From the IMG/VR virus record IMGVR_UViG_3300027971_000039, positions 1 through 64,000 of that record: a stretch of DNA of 64,000 nucleotides. The stretch is one strand, 5' to 3'. The position numbers and the translations under genes were made by a program. Each line of letters begins with the position of its first letter. Positions within the stretch are counted from its first letter, which is position 1. This document shows, in pieces, positions 2,506 to 63,942 of the stretch. Source of the DNA: a virus. The notes beneath the pieces are model-generated. The model did no database searches and had not been told where the DNA came from. It saw only the letters and a list, made by a program, of their open reading frames with translations.

Positions 2506-2862
2506 ATGGAAAAATTTCTACGCTATGGATGGAAAATTGTTACTGAAGAAAAAAAGAAAGCAGTTACTGTAAAATATATTCACAGCTTGATCGAAAAAAA
2601 TGTTTCATTTCGTGTGCTTGATGCTAAAACAAGAGAAGATCTTACACAAGATATGATTCGGGTTCATTTAAATAGAGGCCGAAGTAAAAATGATCAAATC
2701 CTTGACCCAAACATCTACGGTCCAGATAAACCATTGAACGAAGTTAAATACTATTCTTGTAATGATTGTAAAACACCAACAACCAATCGGTTTAAATGCA
2801 CAACATGCTGGGACGAATGTACAGAAAACACGGATGTTGATTTTCTTTATCACACTCTTTAA
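2506..2862 (+). CDS. PhaR/PHB_acc_N-like DNA-binding protein with C-terminal Zn finger
   Basis: VTVKYIHSLIEKNVSFRVLDAKTREDLT resembles the PhaR N-domain (..F.V.DAKTGEDLT); CxxC..CxxC at the C-terminus; start moved to ATG 2506 after GAGG. Confidence 0.5.
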   Translation: MEKFLRYGWKIVTEEKKKAVTVKYIHSLIEKNVSFRVLDAKTREDLTQDMIRVHLNRGRSKNDQILDPNIYGPDKPLNEVKYYSCNDCKTPTTNRFKCTTCWDECTENTDVDFLYHTL

Positions 2863-2873
2863 GTTGAGGTAAT

Positions 2874-3002
2874 ATGATTCGAGTTATTTTTGTATTGGTT
2901 TTGTTTATGTCGGGATGTAGGACGGTAGCAACAAAATCAGATTGTAGCGCGGTGCGTTGTATGCCAGAAGAACATAACCCAACATACTGGAGGCAAAGAT
3001 GA
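2874..3002 (+). CDS. small putative lipoprotein (not in ORF track)
   Basis: MIRVIFVLVLFMSGC: hydrophobic signal plus lipobox; GAGG RBS; 42 aa. Confidence 0.5.
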   Translation: MIRVIFVLVLFMSGCRTVATKSDCSAVRCMPEEHNPTYWRQR

Positions 3003-3234
3003 GTAACGACATAAAAAAACAAAGAGTTAAAAAGTTATTAGATTCAATCCAAGAAGCAGCGAATCAGTTAATTGATATTGGAACTGAAACAGAACCATCA
3101 ACCTTGGTTATGAGTCTTGCGATGTCTGCATATGAATTAGATCTAATGCAAGAAGCGGCAGACAAGTTCTCTTCATTAAAAGGTACGACAGATAATCAAA
3201 CTGAAATAATTGAATTTAAACCAAAGGACATGCA

Positions 3235-3696
3235 ATGAGATTAATATATCTTTTATTCTTAGCTTTGTTATTACCCTTCAATATCGCAACAAGCAGCTTC
3301 CATGATAAATCACTTAACGCAATCTACAGAGAAGCAGCTAAAACAAATGGCATTCATGTTGGACTTCTTAGAGCTGTTTGTGAAATTGAATCTAAACATA
3401 ACCTAAAAATTAAAAAGGTATGGGATGGAGGTTCATATTCATATGGCATATGCCAAGTAAAACTCGGTACTGCTAGGCTAATGGGGTTTAAAGGTAAAGA
3501 ACAACAGTTGATCGACCCCAAAACAAATATCAATTATGCTTCTAAATACTTAGCCTACCAACTGAAACGATATAAAGGTGATTATAAAAAAGCTATTGTA
3601 TCTTACAATAGAGGAAGCTATAATAAAGATGAGGTAATACCATACTCTGGTAAAGTTGCCTTAGCTTTTCTAAAAGACACATTGAAAGGAAATTAA
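3235..3696 (+). CDS. soluble lytic transglycosylase (SLT domain) with signal peptide
   Basis: AVCEIES catalytic Glu, GICQV, NINYASKYL and SYNRG motifs. Confidence 0.85.
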   Translation: MRLIYLLFLALLLPFNIATSSFHDKSLNAIYREAAKTNGIHVGLLRAVCEIESKHNLKIKKVWDGGSYSYGICQVKLGTARLMGFKGKEQQLIDPKTNINYASKYLAYQLKRYKGDYKKAIVSYNRGSYNKDEVIPYSGKVALAFLKDTLKGN

Positions 3697-3698
3697 TA

Positions 3699-3962
3699 AT
3701 GTCAACACGTATTCGTTATGTCAAAAACACCGAAGGTAATCTTGTAACCAAAGCACCCCTCCTCGTAGCAGGAGATCTACTCACAGTCACCCTTGTTCCA
3801 GGAGAACTTAGTTATGTCATCACTAACGCGAACAATGGTCAGCTAGTAACACAAGATGCAGCTATCTCGATGCAGATGCTCAAGATCAAGGTGAAGAAGG
3901 AGCTTAGGTCTAGAGGTGCGGTATTCAATGATGAGGTGAGAACGAGGGGACCGGCTGAATAA
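3699..3962 (+). CDS. hypothetical protein
   Basis: Clean ORF coupled to the upstream gene and followed by a terminator. Confidence 0.6.
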   Translation: MSTRIRYVKNTEGNLVTKAPLLVAGDLLTVTLVPGELSYVITNANNGQLVTQDAAISMQMLKIKVKKELRSRGAVFNDEVRTRGPAE

Positions 3963-29292: not shown

Positions 29293-29670
29293 GTGATAAT
29301 TGTGGCAAAAGAACGAAAGCCGAAAAAACACAATAAAAAAACATTTGTTACAGGCGCATTACGACGCGCTTCTCTCCGTTGGCCTCCTAGAAACATGGCT
29401 TTAAAAAAAGCCCGTGTTGATAGGGGGCTTTATCGTTGTTCAATGTGCGGAGAAAGCTTTAAACGTGATGACATTCATATTGACCACATTATGCCTATTG
29501 TTGATCCATCAAAAGGATTCATCGGATGGGATGATTATATTGAAAAACTCTTTTGTCAAGAAGAAGAATTTCAAATCCTCTGTAAGTACGATCATGAAGT
29601 AAAAACATTAGTAGAAGATGAAATGAGAAAAGCATTAAAAGATGTTGACAAAGTAGACACATCTGAGTAA
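29293..29670 (+). CDS. HNH endonuclease
   Basis: CSMC, HIDHI.P, QILCK..H..KT. Confidence 0.8.
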   Translation: MIIVAKERKPKKHNKKTFVTGALRRASLRWPPRNMALKKARVDRGLYRCSMCGESFKRDDIHIDHIMPIVDPSKGFIGWDDYIEKLFCQEEEFQILCKYDHEVKTLVEDEMRKALKDVDKVDTSE

Positions 29671-34447: not shown

Positions 34448-36795
34448 TATCGTTTAACCCCAACAATTTCACTTGTTCTATTGCCATCAACAATTTCACT
34501 TGTGCCGTCTTCGTATATGAATTGTGTTTGATTTGTTTTTTTATTGTATCCACCATCAATGGCTTTTTTAATTTTTTGTTCTTCTTTTTCTGATTTTATT
34601 CCTAAAGATTCTTGTACTTCAGGTAAAACTCTAGAGTCAAAAATTTCCTCTAAGGGCAACCCACGTCGGTTAAACTGTTTTGCTGCGGGACCAAGTAACC
34701 CGGTGTATTCTTTTTTTGCAACATTCTTAATTGTATTAACGGCATCAAGTAACTGTTTTCTTTGTTTTGGTTGTAATTTAGCTGTTCCACCCAAACGATC
34801 AACCTCGTTTTTTAAACGGTCTAAAACACCGACAGCGCTTTGAATTTCTTTTAATTCTGGTCCTCGAACAACAGATGAATCTCCTTGAAAAAGTTTAGCT
34901 GATTGTAATGTTCTGATAGTATCGCCATACATTCCCGCTGATAAATTTTCAAAAGTATTACTAATTCTTTCTGCATTTTTATACATATCAAAGGCGTCTT
35001 TATATCCCTTCGTCATCACTTGATCTCTAGCAGCAATAATTGCCTTTTCTTGTTTTTCGCTATAACCCTTTTCTAATAACGCTGCTCTATCTAAAGCTCG
35101 TTGTCTAGCATTTTCTGCTCTAGCTTCTCTAGCTTCTCGTTGATTTAAAATATTGGTGAGTTGCGGAGCGTACTTCTCTAACGCCTCAGCTGTTGCAGCT
35201 TCAGGAACAGTAATACCTTGTTGTTTTAATAAATCACGCGCAAACTTAGACTCTTCGCTGGCTGGATCTCTGCGACGAGCAAGACGTTGCATTTCATCTT
35301 GTTTTGTCTTCATTGTATAAGCAGTGCCGACATCTTCTACAGGCTGCTCGGCTTGTTTAATTAACTTATCATAAAAATCAGTGCTAACTGGTTTTGTGAC
35401 AACTCCACCCTTAACTGTTCCAGTTAATCCAGTAGCAAATGTTTCAGCAGCCTTACCGATATTACCAAGTAATATACCCTTATCACGCGCTTCTTGAGCC
35501 ATACGAAGCATTTCATTAAAGTCAATTTCTGCTTTTTGAGGCTTTGCTGATTCAGCTTTAATTGCTTCGTTTAATTTAGCTTCAGGGGATTCATCTTCTC
35601 CAACACCAGTTGAAATTGAACTTTTAGGCACAGGAGATGATTTTTGTTGTCCAACGGATTTAATTTCTGAAACAGATTTTTCTGTGTTGTTTGATGGTAA
35701 AAGAGGAGTTGGTCTTTCTGGTACAGCATAATCAAATTGTTGTGGTTTTTTTGATGCTAATTGCACGTCGCTTCCAACACTCTCTTCAGCTAAACCTCTT
35801 TTTTGTAGGTTAGCTAAAATATTAGAACGTTTTAATCTATCTAATTCAGCCTGTTCTTCTTCTTGAAAAACAGTTGCAGTTGGTCGTAATAATTCTAATG
35901 GGGCAGCAATACGGGGAGATACATTACCTAACAATGTTTCAATGCCAGTTAAACCGCCTTCAACTAAATTACCTTTTGAAAAATCATAAGCTGAAGCGGC
36001 TGCCCCTAAAGCAGTTGCTCCTTTACCTAATGCGGGTAAAAATTTACTTAATTTAGAAAGTCTACTAGGTTCTGGCACAGAGTCTATAGTTCTGCCTGTA
36101 GTTTCTATAAAATCATCTATAACAGCAGGAACACCTCTTTTGATTGTAGCGGGTAAATTTTTAGGCGCATTTTGATCAGCAGCTTCCACTACTGTTTCTC
36201 CGGTTGCACCCATTTCAGACTGTGCTTGTTTTAATAAAGCATCAAATAATTTTTTTTCTCTGGGAGTTGCATAATTAGAAACAGTTGGTAATTCTTTAGG
36301 TGCTAATACATCGGCGGATAATTCAGCGGTTTTTCCAGGGACACTTTGACTTTTTACAATATTTTCTGCAATATTTTTAGGTAAGGCAGAGCCAGTTTCT
36401 TCAAATACCCTAGCAGATTCAGCTGCTGGTGAAATAGCACTTTCAAATAGTTTAGCAGATTCAGCTGCACTTTTTCCTAACCGAGATTGTTTTGCTATAA
36501 TATCTTCAGCAATATTTTTTGGCAATTCAGAGCCAGCTTCTTCGAATACTTTAGCAGACGCTTCCGCTGGTGAAATAGAAGGTGCAGCTCTCATTGATTT
36601 CACACCTTTAGCAAGCTCTCCTAATGTACCCAAAGACCGCCCAGCCGCTCTTTCACCACGCGAAACTAATTCAGAAGCAGCTTGTGCTTCACGTTGTGCT
36701 TCTAATACATCATCTACTGACGACATTTGTGGATCTTTGAAAGATTCAGCCCATTCTTTATATCGCTCTAATTCTTCGGGTGTAAAGTTTGCCAT
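34447..36795 (-). CDS. putative internal virion/DNA ejection protein
   Basis: Large helical protein with an internal duplication (ISPA..SA.VFEE.GS.LPKNIAE.I twice). Confidence 0.55.
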   Translation of the reverse strand: MANFTPEELERYKEWAESFKDPQMSSVDDVLEAQREAQAASELVSRGERAAGRSLGTLGELAKGVKSMRAAPSISPAEASAKVFEEAGSELPKNIAEDIIAKQSRLGKSAAESAKLFESAISPAAESARVFEETGSALPKNIAENIVKSQSVPGKTAELSADVLAPKELPTVSNYATPREKKLFDALLKQAQSEMGATGETVVEAADQNAPKNLPATIKRGVPAVIDDFIETTGRTIDSVPEPSRLSKLSKFLPALGKGATALGAAASAYDFSKGNLVEGGLTGIETLLGNVSPRIAAPLELLRPTATVFQEEEQAELDRLKRSNILANLQKRGLAEESVGSDVQLASKKPQQFDYAVPERPTPLLPSNNTEKSVSEIKSVGQQKSSPVPKSSISTGVGEDESPEAKLNEAIKAESAKPQKAEIDFNEMLRMAQEARDKGILLGNIGKAAETFATGLTGTVKGGVVTKPVSTDFYDKLIKQAEQPVEDVGTAYTMKTKQDEMQRLARRRDPASEESKFARDLLKQQGITVPEAATAEALEKYAPQLTNILNQREAREARAENARQRALDRAALLEKGYSEKQEKAIIAARDQVMTKGYKDAFDMYKNAERISNTFENLSAGMYGDTIRTLQSAKLFQGDSSVVRGPELKEIQSAVGVLDRLKNEVDRLGGTAKLQPKQRKQLLDAVNTIKNVAKKEYTGLLGPAAKQFNRRGLPLEEIFDSRVLPEVQESLGIKSEKEEQKIKKAIDGGYNKKTNQTQFIYEDGTSEIVDGNRTSEIVGVKR

Positions 36796-58647: not shown

Positions 58648-60075
58648 TTATTTTTTATATACTAGGCGTAGTTTACCACAATCATATACTCGGTATAGAC
58701 CATCTTTTAGAGAGTGTTCATGCTCAGTCATTCCAATTGGAGTATTCACCAACGCCTTTTGTCTAGATTGTTTGGATATAATGATCGCTTTCTTAGAGTC
58801 ATAATAAAAATAATCTGGAGGTAGTATCCCATCTAAAACCCAGCCATTTTTAATCCAAGAAGATCCATTGGACCACCTTAAATCAATCCATGTAATAAGT
58901 TCACTATATTTATTGCTTGCAAATTTAGTTAATTTAGTAATTCCACCAGCAACAGTATAGTTTTCCTTTACACAATACCTACTAATGACATATTCTTTGT
59001 TTTTTCTATGATGCTTTCCGATTGTAATTACAGACAGTAATTCGTCGTTAAAGTATAAACCAATTGCTTCTATAAATGAACACGACCCTAAAATGTGATA
59101 TTGATTTAAAAAATACTTAGCTTCTTTTTTAGGAACTTGTCTTATTTCACATTCCCTTCCGTATATTCTTATTTCATTTTTACCTAATTTAGATCGTAGA
59201 AAGGACTTTACTTGATTGCATTTATTCTTCCATTCAAAATCAAATATATGAATTAAATCCAACCCAGCTTCTTTTGCTATATTTGTTTTATCTAGGTGAT
59301 ATTTAGGATACATTTTTTTATTGTATTCTGAATGCCAAAAAGCACCGTTATATTCAATAGCTATATTATACTCTTTAATTTTTAAATCAATTTGTTTTGG
59401 GTTTTTTCCACCAATAAAAGAAGATTCTGCTGTAATACCAATAGATTCTAGCCATTTTTTTATTTGTAGTTCGCCTTCCGATACAAAGAAATTACCATTT
59501 TGTAATAGTGTATTTAGATATTTTTCTTTTGTTTCTGGTAAAGACGCTGGATTCTCTACTCCATATTTTTTTAAATTCGACTCTTTTAAGCCCAATTTAA
59601 TTTTTTCAGAAAACATGGGATTAGATACACCATGATTTGTAATGGTTGTTGAAATTTGTTTTTTTCTTAATTCTGGACTATGCATGGGGGATTCAACCCC
59701 ATAATTAGACTTTAATGTGTTTTTTGATTTGTTGAGAAACTCTTTATTTTGTAGTGCGTGTTCAACGCCATACTTTTCTTTCATTGTAGAGCGAGCTTTT
59801 TTACGCACTTCTACAGCGGCACCGGCATTAGCAACTCCATATTTTGATAGGTTGGTGGATTCTCTGCGTTTTTTAACAGAGTTCGGATGCGTGCTTGCGT
59901 TTGCTTGTTGTAAAGCCTTAAAAGAAGATACAAATTCACCGAATTCATCATCAATAAAGATCAATTTAGTATCTTTATTATATATATCTAATTGATTTAA
60001 TTTGAGTTTAACTCCATCTGGAGTCCAATATTTACTTTCATTTCTTTTTTGAATTACACCTTTGGGTCTTGCCAT
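58648..60075 (-). CDS. free-standing putative homing endonuclease (YGV repeats plus Vsr/PD-(D/E)XK-like domain)
   Basis: Five (K/N)(Y/H)GV repeats, then SEGE.QI, ID, IAIEYNGAFWH, LIHIF..EW; K-rich, AT-rich insertion after the capsid gene. Confidence 0.7.
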   Translation of the reverse strand: MARPKGVIQKRNESKYWTPDGVKLKLNQLDIYNKDTKLIFIDDEFGEFVSSFKALQQANASTHPNSVKKRRESTNLSKYGVANAGAAVEVRKKARSTMKEKYGVEHALQNKEFLNKSKNTLKSNYGVESPMHSPELRKKQISTTITNHGVSNPMFSEKIKLGLKESNLKKYGVENPASLPETKEKYLNTLLQNGNFFVSEGELQIKKWLESIGITAESSFIGGKNPKQIDLKIKEYNIAIEYNGAFWHSEYNKKMYPKYHLDKTNIAKEAGLDLIHIFDFEWKNKCNQVKSFLRSKLGKNEIRIYGRECEIRQVPKKEAKYFLNQYHILGSCSFIEAIGLYFNDELLSVITIGKHHRKNKEYVISRYCVKENYTVAGGITKLTKFASNKYSELITWIDLRWSNGSSWIKNGWVLDGILPPDYFYYDSKKAIIISKQSRQKALVNTPIGMTEHEHSLKDGLYRVYDCGKLRLVYKK

Positions 60076-60125
60076 AATTTTATTGTATATTGGTTAAGCT
60101 GTGTTTTCAAGATTGAGAAAGAAAA

Positions 60126-60162
60126 TAAAAAAGAAGGAGGATACAATTAAGTATCCCCCTTC
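60126..60162 (-). terminator. terminator after the major capsid gene
   Basis: On the minus strand GAAGGGGGATAC-TTAATT-GTATCCTCCTTC followed by TTTTTT. Confidence 0.75.
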
Positions 60163-60176
60163 CCCAATGTTACTGA

Positions 60177-62539
60177 TTAGCTATTAACAATGTCAGTAAT
60201 AATGGTGTTACGACCGGGAGCCTGACAGAAGAGGGCCTGATCGGTGTAAAGGCGTAGCTCGTAAGCCGCGCTGTTCTCTAGGTCACGGAAGAACTCTTCA
60301 CCTTGACCGGGACGCTTGAAGGTGATATCGGTAGAACCGACGCGCATCCAGTCTTCAACGTTAAGAAGATAAGCATATCCTTGCTTAACATAAAGAGACG
60401 GCTCAATTTCAATCTCACCATTTTGTGAATGGAATTTGAGTGATTTTGATCCGTTTTCCATTTTAGCAGGACTGTAGCTCTGATCATACTTGCGTAGAGC
60501 AGCTTGGTCGGTGAGCATATTCTGCCAAGAACGGACGTTGACTAGAGCAAGAAGTGTACCTTCTTGACCTTTTTCAACGGCACGGGTTGCAGCCTGTCCG
60601 AGTTTGGTAAAGGATAGAGCAGCTGAAGCTGCGCTATAGGTGTTACCACGGAAGAGGTTGTAAGTTCCAACGTCGATGTTGAAGAGTGAACCTGAAGAAA
60701 CGGTTAGAATCTTGTGGATTCCAGCGAATTCGTTTCCGTAAGCCCCTTTGTGCCAAATAATATCACCAGAAGCGATGAGAGCAGCAACAGAAGAGTCACA
60801 GGTAACAGTCTGAGCAGACATGTCTACTGAAAGAACCTTAACAGATGCTTTTAAGGCACCAGTTGAAGGATCGCGAATTTCAATAGGCATTCCTTCTGCC
60901 CCTGCCCAGATACCAGGTGCCCATTCACCGGTTTCAATGGTGATAACTGCACCAAGTGCGGAGTCAACAACAGCATATCCAACCTGACCATAGAGCATTT
61001 CGATTTCGAGCTTCTTGGCCATAGAACGGAGCATGTTTGCCACTAGGAATTTAGTAGCATCCATGAAAGCCTTCTGACCACCGAGAGCAGCACGAGAAGC
61101 AGCGACATAGCCAAGGAGTGAACGGAGAACGGCTGGAGAGCCTTTCACCTGAGCGTCTTTGACTTGTCCTGCGACTGGAGCTTGTAAGTTAACAAATTCA
61201 AATACTTAATGTATTTGTGTGGGGCTCTTTATCCCCACAGTCCCATATTTCTATGGGATTGGACTATCTTTTTTTCCAAAAACAGCTATAAAATAATTTA
61301 CCATTGATTTATCTAAATTCATTAATTTAGCAATCTTATGTGGCGTATTATTATTGATATGTAAAGAAAGAATTTGTTCTTTCATTTCCATATACTTTTT
61401 TGGAAATCGAGGACTCGTGGAAGGATTATTAACATTTTCAGTCTCACCTTCTAGTCTCTGCGCGTGTCCAGAGATTTCTTCTGAACTTCCGCTCTGATTG
61501 GCATGAGAAAGATATTCAAACTTAAAATTTTTACGAATAACATTATATTTACAACTAGCTAAAATACTACTTCTAGAAATATTTAATTCTTTGCAAGCAT
61601 TTTTAAAAGAACTAAAAACATATACTTCTGATGTAATTGTATTTATCGCTTTCACACCAACAATATGATTTGTCGATTCTTTGTTTAATTTTTTATTTCT
61701 CATTTTTTGTTTTGTTTCGTTGTCAAAAGTGTAATCATTACCACCAGTGGTTAAATTATAACCATTTGGGCGTAATGTATTATAAAATTCAATAAAATAT
61801 TTTTCATAATAATTTAATGAATCTTTATCAAAACAAGAAATAATTTCTTCAAATATAAAGTTATTAAGGCCGTATTTTTTAAAAGCCTTACCCAAAATAC
61901 CAGATTTTGTCCACTTGTGTGCACCCCAACGTAAACGAACATTACGTTTGGTTTGACCAACGTATTGTTGTCCGTTAACTTTGTTAGTGATTAGGTAGAT
62001 TAATCCGTATTTCATTTTATCTTTCTTTTAGCGTTCCAGGTTTTTTCCTCAATTTTCACTATACTGTTACCAGTATAGGGCCCTTAACTTAACAAGTCAA
62101 GGCGTCTTCGTCTGATCCGGCAAAAGTCACTCCGTGTTCTAACATACTGTTATCATTGAGTTTTTCTCAATAGGCTGGTCATTTCTGCCAACCTCTACCG
62201 TTTCATTTTGTTATTTCGGTAGTTCGGACTATCGCATCAACTTTCGTTGCCAACTCGTTTAGTCTCTCACGGTGCTTTCGCTTCCGCCTTGTCACCCTCT
62301 ACAGGGCTTCCAAGTCAATTAGAGTCGGTTTAGGCTCGGCTTAGAAGTTAACCGAGGATAATTGGCTGGTGATATAAATTCCCAGGTTGCTTATCCTTGC
62401 TCATGAACTTGATCTTATTTAGCAACTTAACCCCATCTGGGATTAACTCTGCAAGACGATCGGCATAAGTTTCTTTGAAAAATCCATTCAATGTTCCAAC
62501 GGTATTATTTGGAGTACCGTAAGTATTTGCACTTGCCAT
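60177..62539 (-). CDS. major capsid protein, three exons (62539-62351, 62142-62100, 61192-60177; 415 aa spliced)
   Basis: Joining at group I splice sites gives ...HQPIILG|LEHGVTFAGSDEDA(F)|NLQAPVAGQVKDAQVKG... in frame; follows a scaffold-like gene and precedes a strong terminator. Confidence 0.85.
61193..62099 (-). mobile_element. group I intron 2 (907 nt) with homing endonuclease
   Basis: Exon ends in U, intron ends in G; P1 GCCU/GGGC, P10 AAGUUAA/UUAACUU, P3 AAUUGAGGA/UCCUCGAUU, P7 CAGAGACUA / AAGAUAGUCC. Confidence 0.92.
61251..62015 (-). CDS. intron-encoded GIY-YIG homing endonuclease
   Basis: GLIY.ITN..NG..YVGQT, R...H, E...I, GYNLT.GG, followed by NUMOD-like modules. Confidence 0.92.
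   Translation of the reverse strand: MKYGLIYLITNKVNGQQYVGQTKRNVRLRWGAHKWTKSGILGKAFKKYGLNNFIFEEIISCFDKDSLNYYEKYFIEFYNTLRPNGYNLTTGGNDYTFDNETKQKMRNKKLNKESTNHIVGVKAINTITSEVYVFSSFKNACKELNISRSSILASCKYNVIRKNFKFEYLSHANQSGSSEEISGHAQRLEGETENVNNPSTSPRFPKKYMEMKEQILSLHINNNTPHKIAKLMNLDKSMVNYFIAVFGKKDSPIP
62143..62350 (-). mobile_element. group I intron 1 (208 nt, ORF-less)
   Basis: P1 CUCGGU/GCCGAG with U.G, P10 UUCUAA/UUAGAA, P3 CCGACUC/GAGUUGG, P7 GAGACUA / GAUAGUCC, terminal G. Confidence 0.92.
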
Positions 62540-62562
62540 ATACTATATTTCCTTTCTATTAA

Positions 62563-62886
62563 TTATTCTTTTACAACGTATTTTAAAATAACACTGTCGG
62601 CAGCAACCATAGCTGCACTGAGTGTTAGAGTTACTTGTGAATCAGCAACGCCGCCAGAAGGAGTTCCAATTGCAATTCCAGCTTGAGCGATTAGATAAAC
62701 ACCAACGCTGTCGTCACAATGTAAAGCAGCCCGAACTTCAGCAACAGGCTCACCCACTTGAATTACAACATTGGTTCCTGCCCCAAGAGCAATAACACCA
62801 ATGTCTGATAGTTTTAAACAAAGTTCCTGCACTTTTAGTGCAACCGAAAGAACTTTGTCGTCTTTTGATTGATAAGAAATTGACAT
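62563..62886 (-). CDS. putative head decoration/minor capsid protein
   Basis: Small beta-rich ORF between scaffold and capsid genes. Confidence 0.45.
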   Translation of the reverse strand: MSISYQSKDDKVLSVALKVQELCLKLSDIGVIALGAGTNVVIQVGEPVAEVRAALHCDDSVGVYLIAQAGIAIGTPSGGVADSQVTLTLSAAMVAADSVILKYVVKE

Positions 62887-63006
62887 ATTATTTCCTATAT
62901 TTGGTTAAATGGTTAATAGTTAATTGCCTTGTAATCTTCTTAGATATTTCCACTCAGTATACCTGGTTATGGAAAGTCTTAGTTGACTACCCTATAAAAC
63001 AAACGA

Positions 63007-63942
63007 TCAAACTCCGAAAAAGTCCTTATAAGACATTTTCTTTTCAGGTTCTTTTACAGAAGTTTTACCGCCCGTATCTTTTACTGCTTTAGCCGAAGAA
63101 ACAGCAACTGCTTCTTTAGCCTTAGCAAGATTCTTTTTACGAAAATTAGCTAAACGCTGCTTTCCTAAAAACTGTTCTAATGCCTCATCTGGCATAGCGT
63201 TGATGAGGGTTTGAATATCTTTTTCAAGTTCTTGTTTTACAAGAGGAATAACATCTTCAGCAGAAACATCATATCCTTCTTGCAAAGCTACAAGCATATA
63301 ATCTGCAATCTTCTTAACCACATATGGTTCTTTAGGAAGATTAGAGCTTTCTAAAGCAGCGGTCATTTGCTGATCGTACTTCTCGTATGCTTGCTCTTGT
63401 AGTCGTTCAAATTCTTTTTGTTCGAATTGTTGTTTTTCTTGTTCACGTTCTTGTTTAAGAGAACGAAGTTCTTCTTCGATTCGTTCTTTTTCAAGTTGTT
63501 CAGGTGATTTTTGGGAGTTTTCAATTTCTTGTTCAATAATTTGTCTTGCTAATTCACGTTCATCAATACTAAGTTCTTTAAGAAGCTTGCGAGGGTTTTT
63601 AGTGCCTTCGGTGATTAGCTGACGAATTTCTTTTTCAAGCTGGGCATATTCTTGAGCGCGTTTTGTTCCCATGCGTGACATTTGAAGGTGGCGCTTCATG
63701 TATTCAATAGCTTCAGGATCATCTGGAATTTCAAATGGAAGATCTTCATCAATCTCACGTCCATCTACTTTTAGACGGAGAGAACGAAGCCTAGCTGCTT
63801 CTTTAACGGCAGCTTTTGCTTCTTGACTAGAGTTTTGGGTTGTTTCTGGGGCATCTGCAATTTCGGCAGAAGAAGATTCGAATACCTCGCTTGAGGTTTC
63901 GGGACTAGCTGATTGTACAGCTTGTGCTGATGAATTATCCAT
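63007..63942 (-). CDS. capsid scaffolding protein
   Basis: Acidic N-terminus, LKVDG.E motif, long charged coiled coil; upstream of the capsid gene. Confidence 0.7.
   Translation of the reverse strand: MDNSSAQAVQSASPETSSEVFESSSAEIADAPETTQNSSQEAKAAVKEAARLRSLRLKVDGREIDEDLPFEIPDDPEAIEYMKRHLQMSRMGTKRAQEYAQLEKEIRQLITEGTKNPRKLLKELSIDERELARQIIEQEIENSQKSPEQLEKERIEEELRSLKQEREQEKQQFEQKEFERLQEQAYEKYDQQMTAALESSNLPKEPYVVKKIADYMLVALQEGYDVSAEDVIPLVKQELEKDIQTLINAMPDEALEQFLGKQRLANFRKKNLAKAKEAVAVSSAKAVKDTGGKTSVKEPEKKMSYKDFFGV

Follow-up and report, generated by a model that had tools for sequence, protein, structure and literature searches.

Group I introns of phages reside mostly in genes of DNA metabolism, as passages of two reports state (PMC8541194, PMC3706429) and as had been claimed in the first-pass annotation of the DNA treated here, which was made from the letters alone. 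Introns in capsid genes are already known as well, including genes with several introns. In mycobacteriophage LittleE, the major capsid gene contains a group I intron and a homing endonuclease gene, as described in the excerpted text of Pope et al. (2013, PMC3706429), where a capsid-gene intron of lactococcal phage Tuc2009 is also cited. Crass-like phages of the Delta and Zeta groups have intron-rich capsid genes, one example being divided into five fragments (excerpts of Yutin et al. 2021, PMC7886860), and for jumbo gut phages a mean of 18.5 group I introns per genome is given in passages of PMC12880540, where 37 of 76 predicted introns had support from RNA reads. Here, we describe a further example. 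The analyzed DNA, called the window throughout, comprises the first 64 kb (64,000 nucleotides, nt) of the uncultured phage record IMGVR_UViG_3300027971_000039, a single contig of 85,827 base pairs (bp) that CheckV rated as complete. Within it, a gene for a likely major capsid protein of 415 amino acids (aa) is very probably interrupted by two mobile group I introns that lie 43 nt apart and are both spliced out. The structural reading, i.e. two group I introns around a 43-nt exon and a capsid protein that would be obtained only after both removals, is well supported by colinearity with intron-less homologs and by covariation, as described below.

The reconstruction of the gene rests on the colinearity of its three exons with uninterrupted homologs. 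The coordinates and the junctions CTCGGT/TTAGAA and GACGCCT/TTAAC, which had been given in the first-pass annotation, were recovered unchanged when the minus strand was read (Table 1). A scripted join of exons 1, 2 and 3 yielded 1248 nt that encode 415 aa and a single terminal stop codon, so that the claim of one continuous frame held. The annotation had also proposed a comparison with intron-less homologs. The joined product could be aligned without gaps to the uninterrupted metagenomic homolog P0003, with 400 of 415 residues identical, and exon 1 showed 100% identity with P0003 residues 1-63 (tblastn). In four of five homologs checked, both junctions were identical, and the fifth, P0049, differed there in four residues, again without a gap. 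The residues encoded by exon 2 were mostly invariant among 26 homologs. As had been noted before, the list of open reading frames (ORFs) splits and truncates the gene: it contains a 63-aa ORF (62348..62539), a 323-aa ORF (60177..61148) and a 254-aa ORF between them. It was likewise correct that skipping of exon 2 would shift the reading frame, because 43 is not a multiple of three.

Table 1. Coordinates of the interrupted capsid locus in the window (position 1 is the first letter of the window)
Feature	Position	Strand	Details
Exon 1, likely major capsid gene	62351..62539	-	189 nt, 63 codons; ATG at 62539; 3' end ...CTCGGT
Predicted intron 1 (type A)	62143..62350	-	208 nt; last base G at 62143
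Intron 1, P10 guide	62346-62341	-	
Intron 1, P1 guide	62340-62335	-	
Intron 1, P3-P8 core	62331-62223	-	
Intron 1, P7	62264-62260 with 62231-62227	-	followed by P9, P9.1 and P9.2
Exon 2	62100..62142	-	43 nt, TTAGAA...GACGCCT; encodes LEHGVTFAGSDEDA and the first base of an F codon
Predicted intron 2 (type B)	61193..62099	-	907 nt; last base G at 61193
Intron 2, guide	62088-62080	-	
Intron 2, P2	62078-62059	-	
Intron 2, P3	62052-62046 with 61413-61407	-	
Intron 2, P4'/P6/P7/P7.1	61496-61414	-	
Intron 2, P8	61406-61397 with 61282-61273	-	
Intron 2, P7 3' strand	61266-61261	-	
Intron 2, P9 to P9.2	61258-61200	-	
GIY-YIG homing endonuclease gene	61251..62015	-	254 aa, inside intron 2
Exon 3, likely major capsid gene	60177..61192	-	1016 nt including stop codon; begins TTAAC

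The gene product is likely the major capsid protein. Exon 3 matched PHROG 14242 'major head protein' with an expectation value (E) of 1.7e-10, and 2209 relatives were found at E<=1e-5, mostly with a length of about 415 aa. Pfam yielded no match for the capsid protein, and a PDB sequence search with a profile of 26 capsid sequences returned only chance-level matches. Concerning an HK97-type capsid fold, the AlphaFold model of P0003 was poor (mean predicted local distance difference test score 57) because its alignment was shallow in diversity. The best Foldseek matches of this poor model were phage capsid proteins (VP1, PhiTE, SPO1), but they were weak (E 3.8e-5, template modelling score about 0.19). 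In the phage collection, tblastn with exon 3 retrieved one distant relative, with 29% identity, in a Silvanigrella phage. Immediately downstream of the capsid gene, a free-standing 475-aa frame (58648-60075, minus strand) has matches to PHROG 3339 'homing endonuclease' (E 3e-93) and to Pfam DUF7487; it carries repeats of a KYGV-type motif in its N-terminal half; it represents a second mobile-element gene at the capsid locus.

Related loci were used to characterize the inserts. A scan of IMG/VR with exon 3 yielded 73 loci, four of which were cut off and uninformative. Among the 69 informative loci, the capsid gene was uninterrupted in 45 and interrupted in 24. With a spliced alignment written for this purpose, 50 interruptions were placed in these 24 loci and the window. 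A T before the insert and a G as the last base of the insert were found for 41 of the 50 interruptions, and for 26 of the 30 that had a single best placement. Hand correction turned two of the nine misses (L012-3 and L072-2) into T/G cases, while the unresolved junctions L072-1/L035-1, L027-1, L061 and L067 were counted as misses. Inserts with ends that depart from the T...G rule are located at 2781-3064 of both L072 and L035, at 1219-2193 of L027 and at 3001-3935 of L067; for L072-1/L035-1, T precedes the insert and A is its last base. For these off-rule inserts, either the boundaries are wrong by a few bases or the inserts are altered copies. The guides of 31 distinct T/G introns were then compared with their own exons and with those of other sites. 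On average, P1 comprised 6.3 bp with the own exon and 3.2 bp with the exons of other sites, and the stretch just 5' of the P1 guide could form a P10 of 4.4 bp with the own downstream exon, compared to 1.5 bp cross-site.

Intron 1 belongs to a type without reading frame, which we call type A. Its P1 comprises 6 bp including the U.G pair, its P10 also comprises 6 bp, just two bases separate P7 and P3', and the core helices are intact, with 25 of 25 pairs formed. Folding of this sequence alone gave the same helices (z = -4.87). For the type A alignment, nine related introns without reading frames from four sites were used, and RNAalifold predicted P1, P3, P4, P5, P6, P8, P9 and P9.1. When the P7 pseudoknot was added, 95.4% of the cells were paired, compared to 28-42% when the partners were slid by one to three columns. 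At 36 of 51 pairs both sides had changed, and none of 500 shuffles reached these values. A covariance model of the type A P3-P8 core, R1, scored 126 bits on intron 1, which is its sole copy in the phage's own genome, and found 18 copies in 31 related loci.

Ribonucleotide reductase is a classical target gene of group I introns. In Roseobacter phage CRP-118, where this gene is present as two fragments, R1 also matched the space separating them, with 89 bits and over the full length of the model. DNA searches for close and remote similarity in the phage collection returned a sole match, 67 nt in the same phage. In the record of CRP-118 (OR420741.1), the insert lies at about 35075-35187 (2492-2604 of our locus L075), and the reductase is annotated as gp44 and gp45 with an unannotated gap. 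Judged by its predicted core, this gap is an unannotated group I intron.

Intron 2 represents a second type, type B. It has a P10 of 7 bp and a P1 with U.G, and every listed core helix is fully paired. The U.G in P1, the P10, the P3/P7 core and the terminal G, which the first-pass annotation had described for both inserts, are thus all present. Among 12 type B introns, the paired cells amounted to 84/84 for P3, 36/36 for P6, 60/60 for P7.1 and 66/66 for P9.1. P7 was paired in 60/60 cells, and two of its positions had changed on both strands, in L061 and L072. Between P7 and P3', intron 2 contains P7.1 as an extra covarying helix, which has an inner hairpin in most relatives. P7.1 and P7.2 are a mark of class IA. 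Both helices are named as class features of group I introns in passages of a review (PMC3984707).

The 254-aa frame of intron 2 encodes a GIY-YIG homing endonuclease. Residues 4-87 matched Pfam PF01541 (E 5.6e-11, 43 bits compared to a cut-off of 22.6), and the frame matched PHROG 314 and 7168, both 'homing endonuclease', with E 1e-28 and 3e-22; a sequence search revealed no relative of solved structure. The 85.8-kb genome contains no further GIY-YIG match and no other copy of either core. The only other nuclease-family match, in a search for two families, was a partial HNH match (E 4.2e-5) of a small frame at 29293-29670 (plus strand). The position of the gene in the ribozyme was deduced from two relatives: a 256-nt intron without frame (L009, site 201) equals an 847-nt intron (L004) except that 17 nt are replaced by the endonuclease gene, which places the gene in loop L5. 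In intron 2 the frame starts in L5, runs through P4', P6, P7, P7.1, P3' and the 5' strand of P8, and stops inside P9, so that approximately residues 173-206 are encoded by the P4'-P8 core. P8 in intron 2 and in four relatives at site 232 is a 10-bp stem around about 115 further coding bases, and the further segment of the endonuclease in L8 is helix-turn-helix-like. A peptide encoded by the core (61496-61397, minus strand), ANQSGSS..IS.HAQRL, is conserved in relatives whose frame ends soon afterwards, e.g. in L004; the same bases would thus serve as RNA helices and as a protein linker. According to passages of PMC3984707, endonuclease frames are usually located wholly in loops, although some do overlap the core, under tight control. 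A frame threaded through the core, as in intron 2, is therefore known, if uncommon.

Small portions of the window were present in four metatranscriptome runs, of which the assembled contigs were inspected. Contig depths were not used to rank forms, and positions 62116-62283 had no RNA cover in any of the four runs, which counts as no evidence. In X2, a run labelled as lake-water metatranscriptome, two contigs of 151 nt were at least 99% like exon 3. In run X1, positions 61192 and 62351 are connected in a contig of depth 38.7, separated by about 44 letters without a placement, and a contig of run X4 joins 61184 to 62358 with 58 letters between them, which equals 8+43+7. Both joined contigs represent the uninterrupted exon 1-2-3 form and are 89-95% like the window. 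X1 also contains further contigs of intron 2, and in this run contigs end precisely at 61192, where exon 3 begins. Another X1 contig of 230 nt (depth 4.9) runs from the interior of the endonuclease gene to about base 6 of intron 2 and continues with 29 letters of the end of intron 2 (window positions 61896-62094 and 61193-61221). The 29 letters correspond to the final 29 bases of intron 2 as they read in a relative, and the 13 at their start are identical to 61193-61205. The last base of intron 2 is thus joined to about its sixth base, which is the order expected of a circularised group I intron.

These observations lead to a mechanism that would be the textbook one. After transcription, each intron would fold separately, and the guide near its 5' end would form two helices: P1, with the end of the upstream exon and a U.G pair at the cleavage position, and P10, with the first bases of the downstream exon. 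The P3-P9 core would bind guanosine, and two transesterifications would excise the intron, with cleavage behind its terminal G, and ligate the exons; only removal of both introns would restore the open frame. The GIY-YIG product of intron 2 presumably cuts intron-less capsid alleles of co-infecting relatives, and repair would copy the intron in. Intron 1 carries no gene and is probably spread as a passenger in the repair tract of its neighbour.

The distribution of introns among the relatives bears on the question of spread. At least 13 insertion sites were found (P0003 nt 63, 73, 102, 147, 159, 171, 177, 189, 201, 203, 232, 258 and 270), in addition to two further sites without resolved position, and none of the 69 loci had an interruption in codons 90-415. 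One to three interruptions per gene were resolved, numbers that are lower bounds, and the internal exons ranged from 18 to 156 nt. Internal exons of 18 nt occur twice in a row in L012 (2020-3973) and once in L038 (97-1219). Three independent assemblies, L011, L013 and L017, share the same three-exon layout with the same two introns, and the third insert of L001 is the site-201 intron of L009. In L061, what was called a single insert of 1065 nt (2885-3949) holds a type A core (R1, 108 bits, 2909-3019) as well as a type B core, indicating two introns and a missed micro-exon between them.

All ten intron frames tested encode homing endonucleases, and these belong to three families: LAGLIDADG at sites 63, 102, 147 and 159, GIY-YIG at sites 171, 201, 258 and about 169, and HNH with NUMOD3 at sites 177 and 189. 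In 25 of 25 interrupted genes, the window included, at least one intron has a frame of at least 187 aa. All 14 genes with a frame-less intron also carry an armed one, 18-108 exon bases away. That unarmed introns are always found near an armed one fits spread by co-conversion, a suggestion that is weakened by shared ancestry. An 832-nt intron of L012 (2020-2851) has a frame of just 48 aa, and a 502-nt intron of L048 (3466-3967) one of 106 aa; these two look like stages of endonuclease decay. Nucleotide conservation was high over nt 61-450, but no higher than in some blocks (511-540, 661-720 and 1021-1050) that are free of introns in all 69 loci. Therefore, nucleotide conservation alone does not explain the confinement of the introns to nt 63-270.

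According to the first-pass annotation, capsid synthesis may be timed by the two splicing events. Splicing would then be a control step that delays or doses the capsid protein, an idea that is compatible with two self-removing mobile introns. The requirement for both removals would provide such a step, and the overlap of the endonuclease frame with the ribozyme core could let translation and folding compete, in line with the tight control of overlapping frames mentioned in passages of the review cited above (PMC3984707). However, 45 of the 69 relatives have an uninterrupted gene for the same protein, and among the other 24 the number of introns, the sites and the endonuclease families vary freely, so that nothing is conserved in the lineage that could act as regulator. 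Variable numbers, at least 13 sites and three endonuclease families point to selfish homing elements and not to a conserved regulatory device, and a role in timing, for which we found no support, is regarded as unlikely.

Several results weigh against two introns that splice by themselves. Rfam RF00028 gave no match at E<=1 over 59500-63500, nor at E<=10 over intron 1 alone. As a control, in the same mode, RF00028 found the T4 td and nrdB introns with 40.3 and 35.7 bits, respectively, both below the gathering score of 50. The best Rfam match, RAGATH-33, reached 16 bits compared to a gathering score of 120 and was treated as chance. Our own core model scored the T4 introns with 12 and 10 bits, which is not significant. 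P1 of intron 2 comprises only 4 bp, and the values for P8 (68/72) and P9 (72/72) of the 12 type B introns were obtained by a best-of-scan choice that leans towards pairing. Kinship among the related sequences inflates the shuffle statistics. Because the endonuclease frame crosses the catalytic core, its translation could interfere with folding. Concerning RNA, the contigs of the four runs contained no splice from this exact genome, the joined contigs may stem from spliced RNA, from intron-less relatives or from library DNA, and the circle-like junction is a single contig with a place uncertain by one base.

Some of these points, namely the missing Rfam match, the short P1 of intron 2 and the want of direct splicing RNA for this genome, would also be expected if the inserts were derived from group I introns and needed a phage or host protein or the neighbouring ribozyme, or if one of them had decayed and the genome were a defective variant. 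Apparent decay does occur in relatives, as in the 832-nt intron with a 48-aa frame in L012 and the 502-nt intron with a 106-aa remnant in L048. In the window, however, the core helices of both introns are intact and the exons are undamaged (400 of 415 residues identical to P0003), and the two-intron, three-exon layout is the same in L011, L013 and L017. Dependence on a helper or decay is therefore quite improbable.

That the gene is split in the DNA and never rejoined, its pieces being translated separately, as the separate pieces of the ORF caller might suggest and as is described for unspliced split genes such as Aeh1 nrdA/mobE (cited in passages of PMC7344957), or that the contig is an assembly chimera, is hardly credible. 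Exon 2, with its 43 nt, cannot yield a polypeptide by itself, the RNA structure of the inserts is conserved and covaries, their guides match their own exons, and the interrupted arrangement recurs in independent assemblies. Other types of inserts were ruled out: inteins, as the insert lengths of 208 and 907 nt cannot be divided by three and both inserts begin with a stop codon in frame; group II introns, as a reverse transcriptase frame is absent and intron 1 has just 208 nt; and translational bypass, on account of the insert lengths. Two mobile group I introns that are both spliced out thus remained the favoured explanation.

A wider proposal is tentative, and we regard it as possible but doubtful. 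The first 270 nt of the capsid gene might be a battleground of mobile introns, in which two ribozyme chassis were re-aimed to at least 13 sites by guide changes only, endonucleases of three families were exchanged, and gene-less introns persist solely as hitch-hikers, no more than about 100 exon bases away from an armed one. The endonuclease of intron 2 would be translated through the core, its halves being located in two loops, so that translation of the endonuclease and splicing of the capsid transcript would exclude each other on any one RNA molecule.

The results also have a practical side. Gene callers truncate the capsid gene, and similarly shortened lengths are seen for about 19 of the 120 best database homologs. 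Once the introns are recognised, the annotation is thus corrected for a widespread group of uncultured phages. Furthermore, the relatives represent a compact natural experiment on the spread of introns, with at least 13 sites in about 210 nt, endonucleases of three families, two ribozyme families outside the reach of Rfam, and armed and gene-less introns side by side. Among the features of the locus, three are less common: the two ribozyme families beyond the reach of Rfam, the dense hot spot of 13 sites, and the endonuclease frame that runs through the core into a second loop. A limited literature search, and thus a weak negative, retrieved no description of capsid hot spots with a comparable density of sites.

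Comparison with the known systems underscores both the familiar and the particular features of the locus. The LittleE locus (excerpts of PMC3706429) resembles that of the window in having an intron in the capsid gene with a U before it and a G at its end, an endonuclease gene, and joined exons that are colinear with intron-less relatives. In LittleE, however, there is just one intron, for which splicing was demonstrated by reverse transcription PCR and N-terminal sequencing, and the LAGLIDADG-like endonuclease is encoded on the opposite strand. The window differs in its pair of introns, separated by 43 nt, in a GIY-YIG gene that shares the strand of the capsid gene, and in splicing that is predicted from the sequence. 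The crAss-like phages, as portrayed in excerpts of PMC7886860, share with the window a metagenomic capsid gene in several pieces and group I introns with endonuclease domains. They represent another lineage from another habitat, the human gut, and in that account the introns were recognised by protein domains only, while RNA structure and guides were resolved for the window.

Phages with introns in other genes offer additional parallels. T4 td with I-TevI (AF158101.6, annotated as group IA and GIY-YIG) is similar in that a GIY-YIG gene lies inside a phage group I intron. It differs in that td is a gene of nucleotide metabolism and its intron is recognised by Rfam, in contrast to the window introns, and in that the endonuclease frame of the window crosses the catalytic core and occupies L5 as well as L8. 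In orf142 of Staphylococcus phage Twort, Landthaler and Shub reportedly found three group I introns and exon skipping in 1999; Twort would share with the window the presence of several related group I introns, separated by small exons, in a single gene. The CRP-118 insert resides in the reductase gene of a marine podovirus and is not called an intron in its record, but its ribozyme core belongs to the family of intron 1, with P3 kept through changes on both strands.

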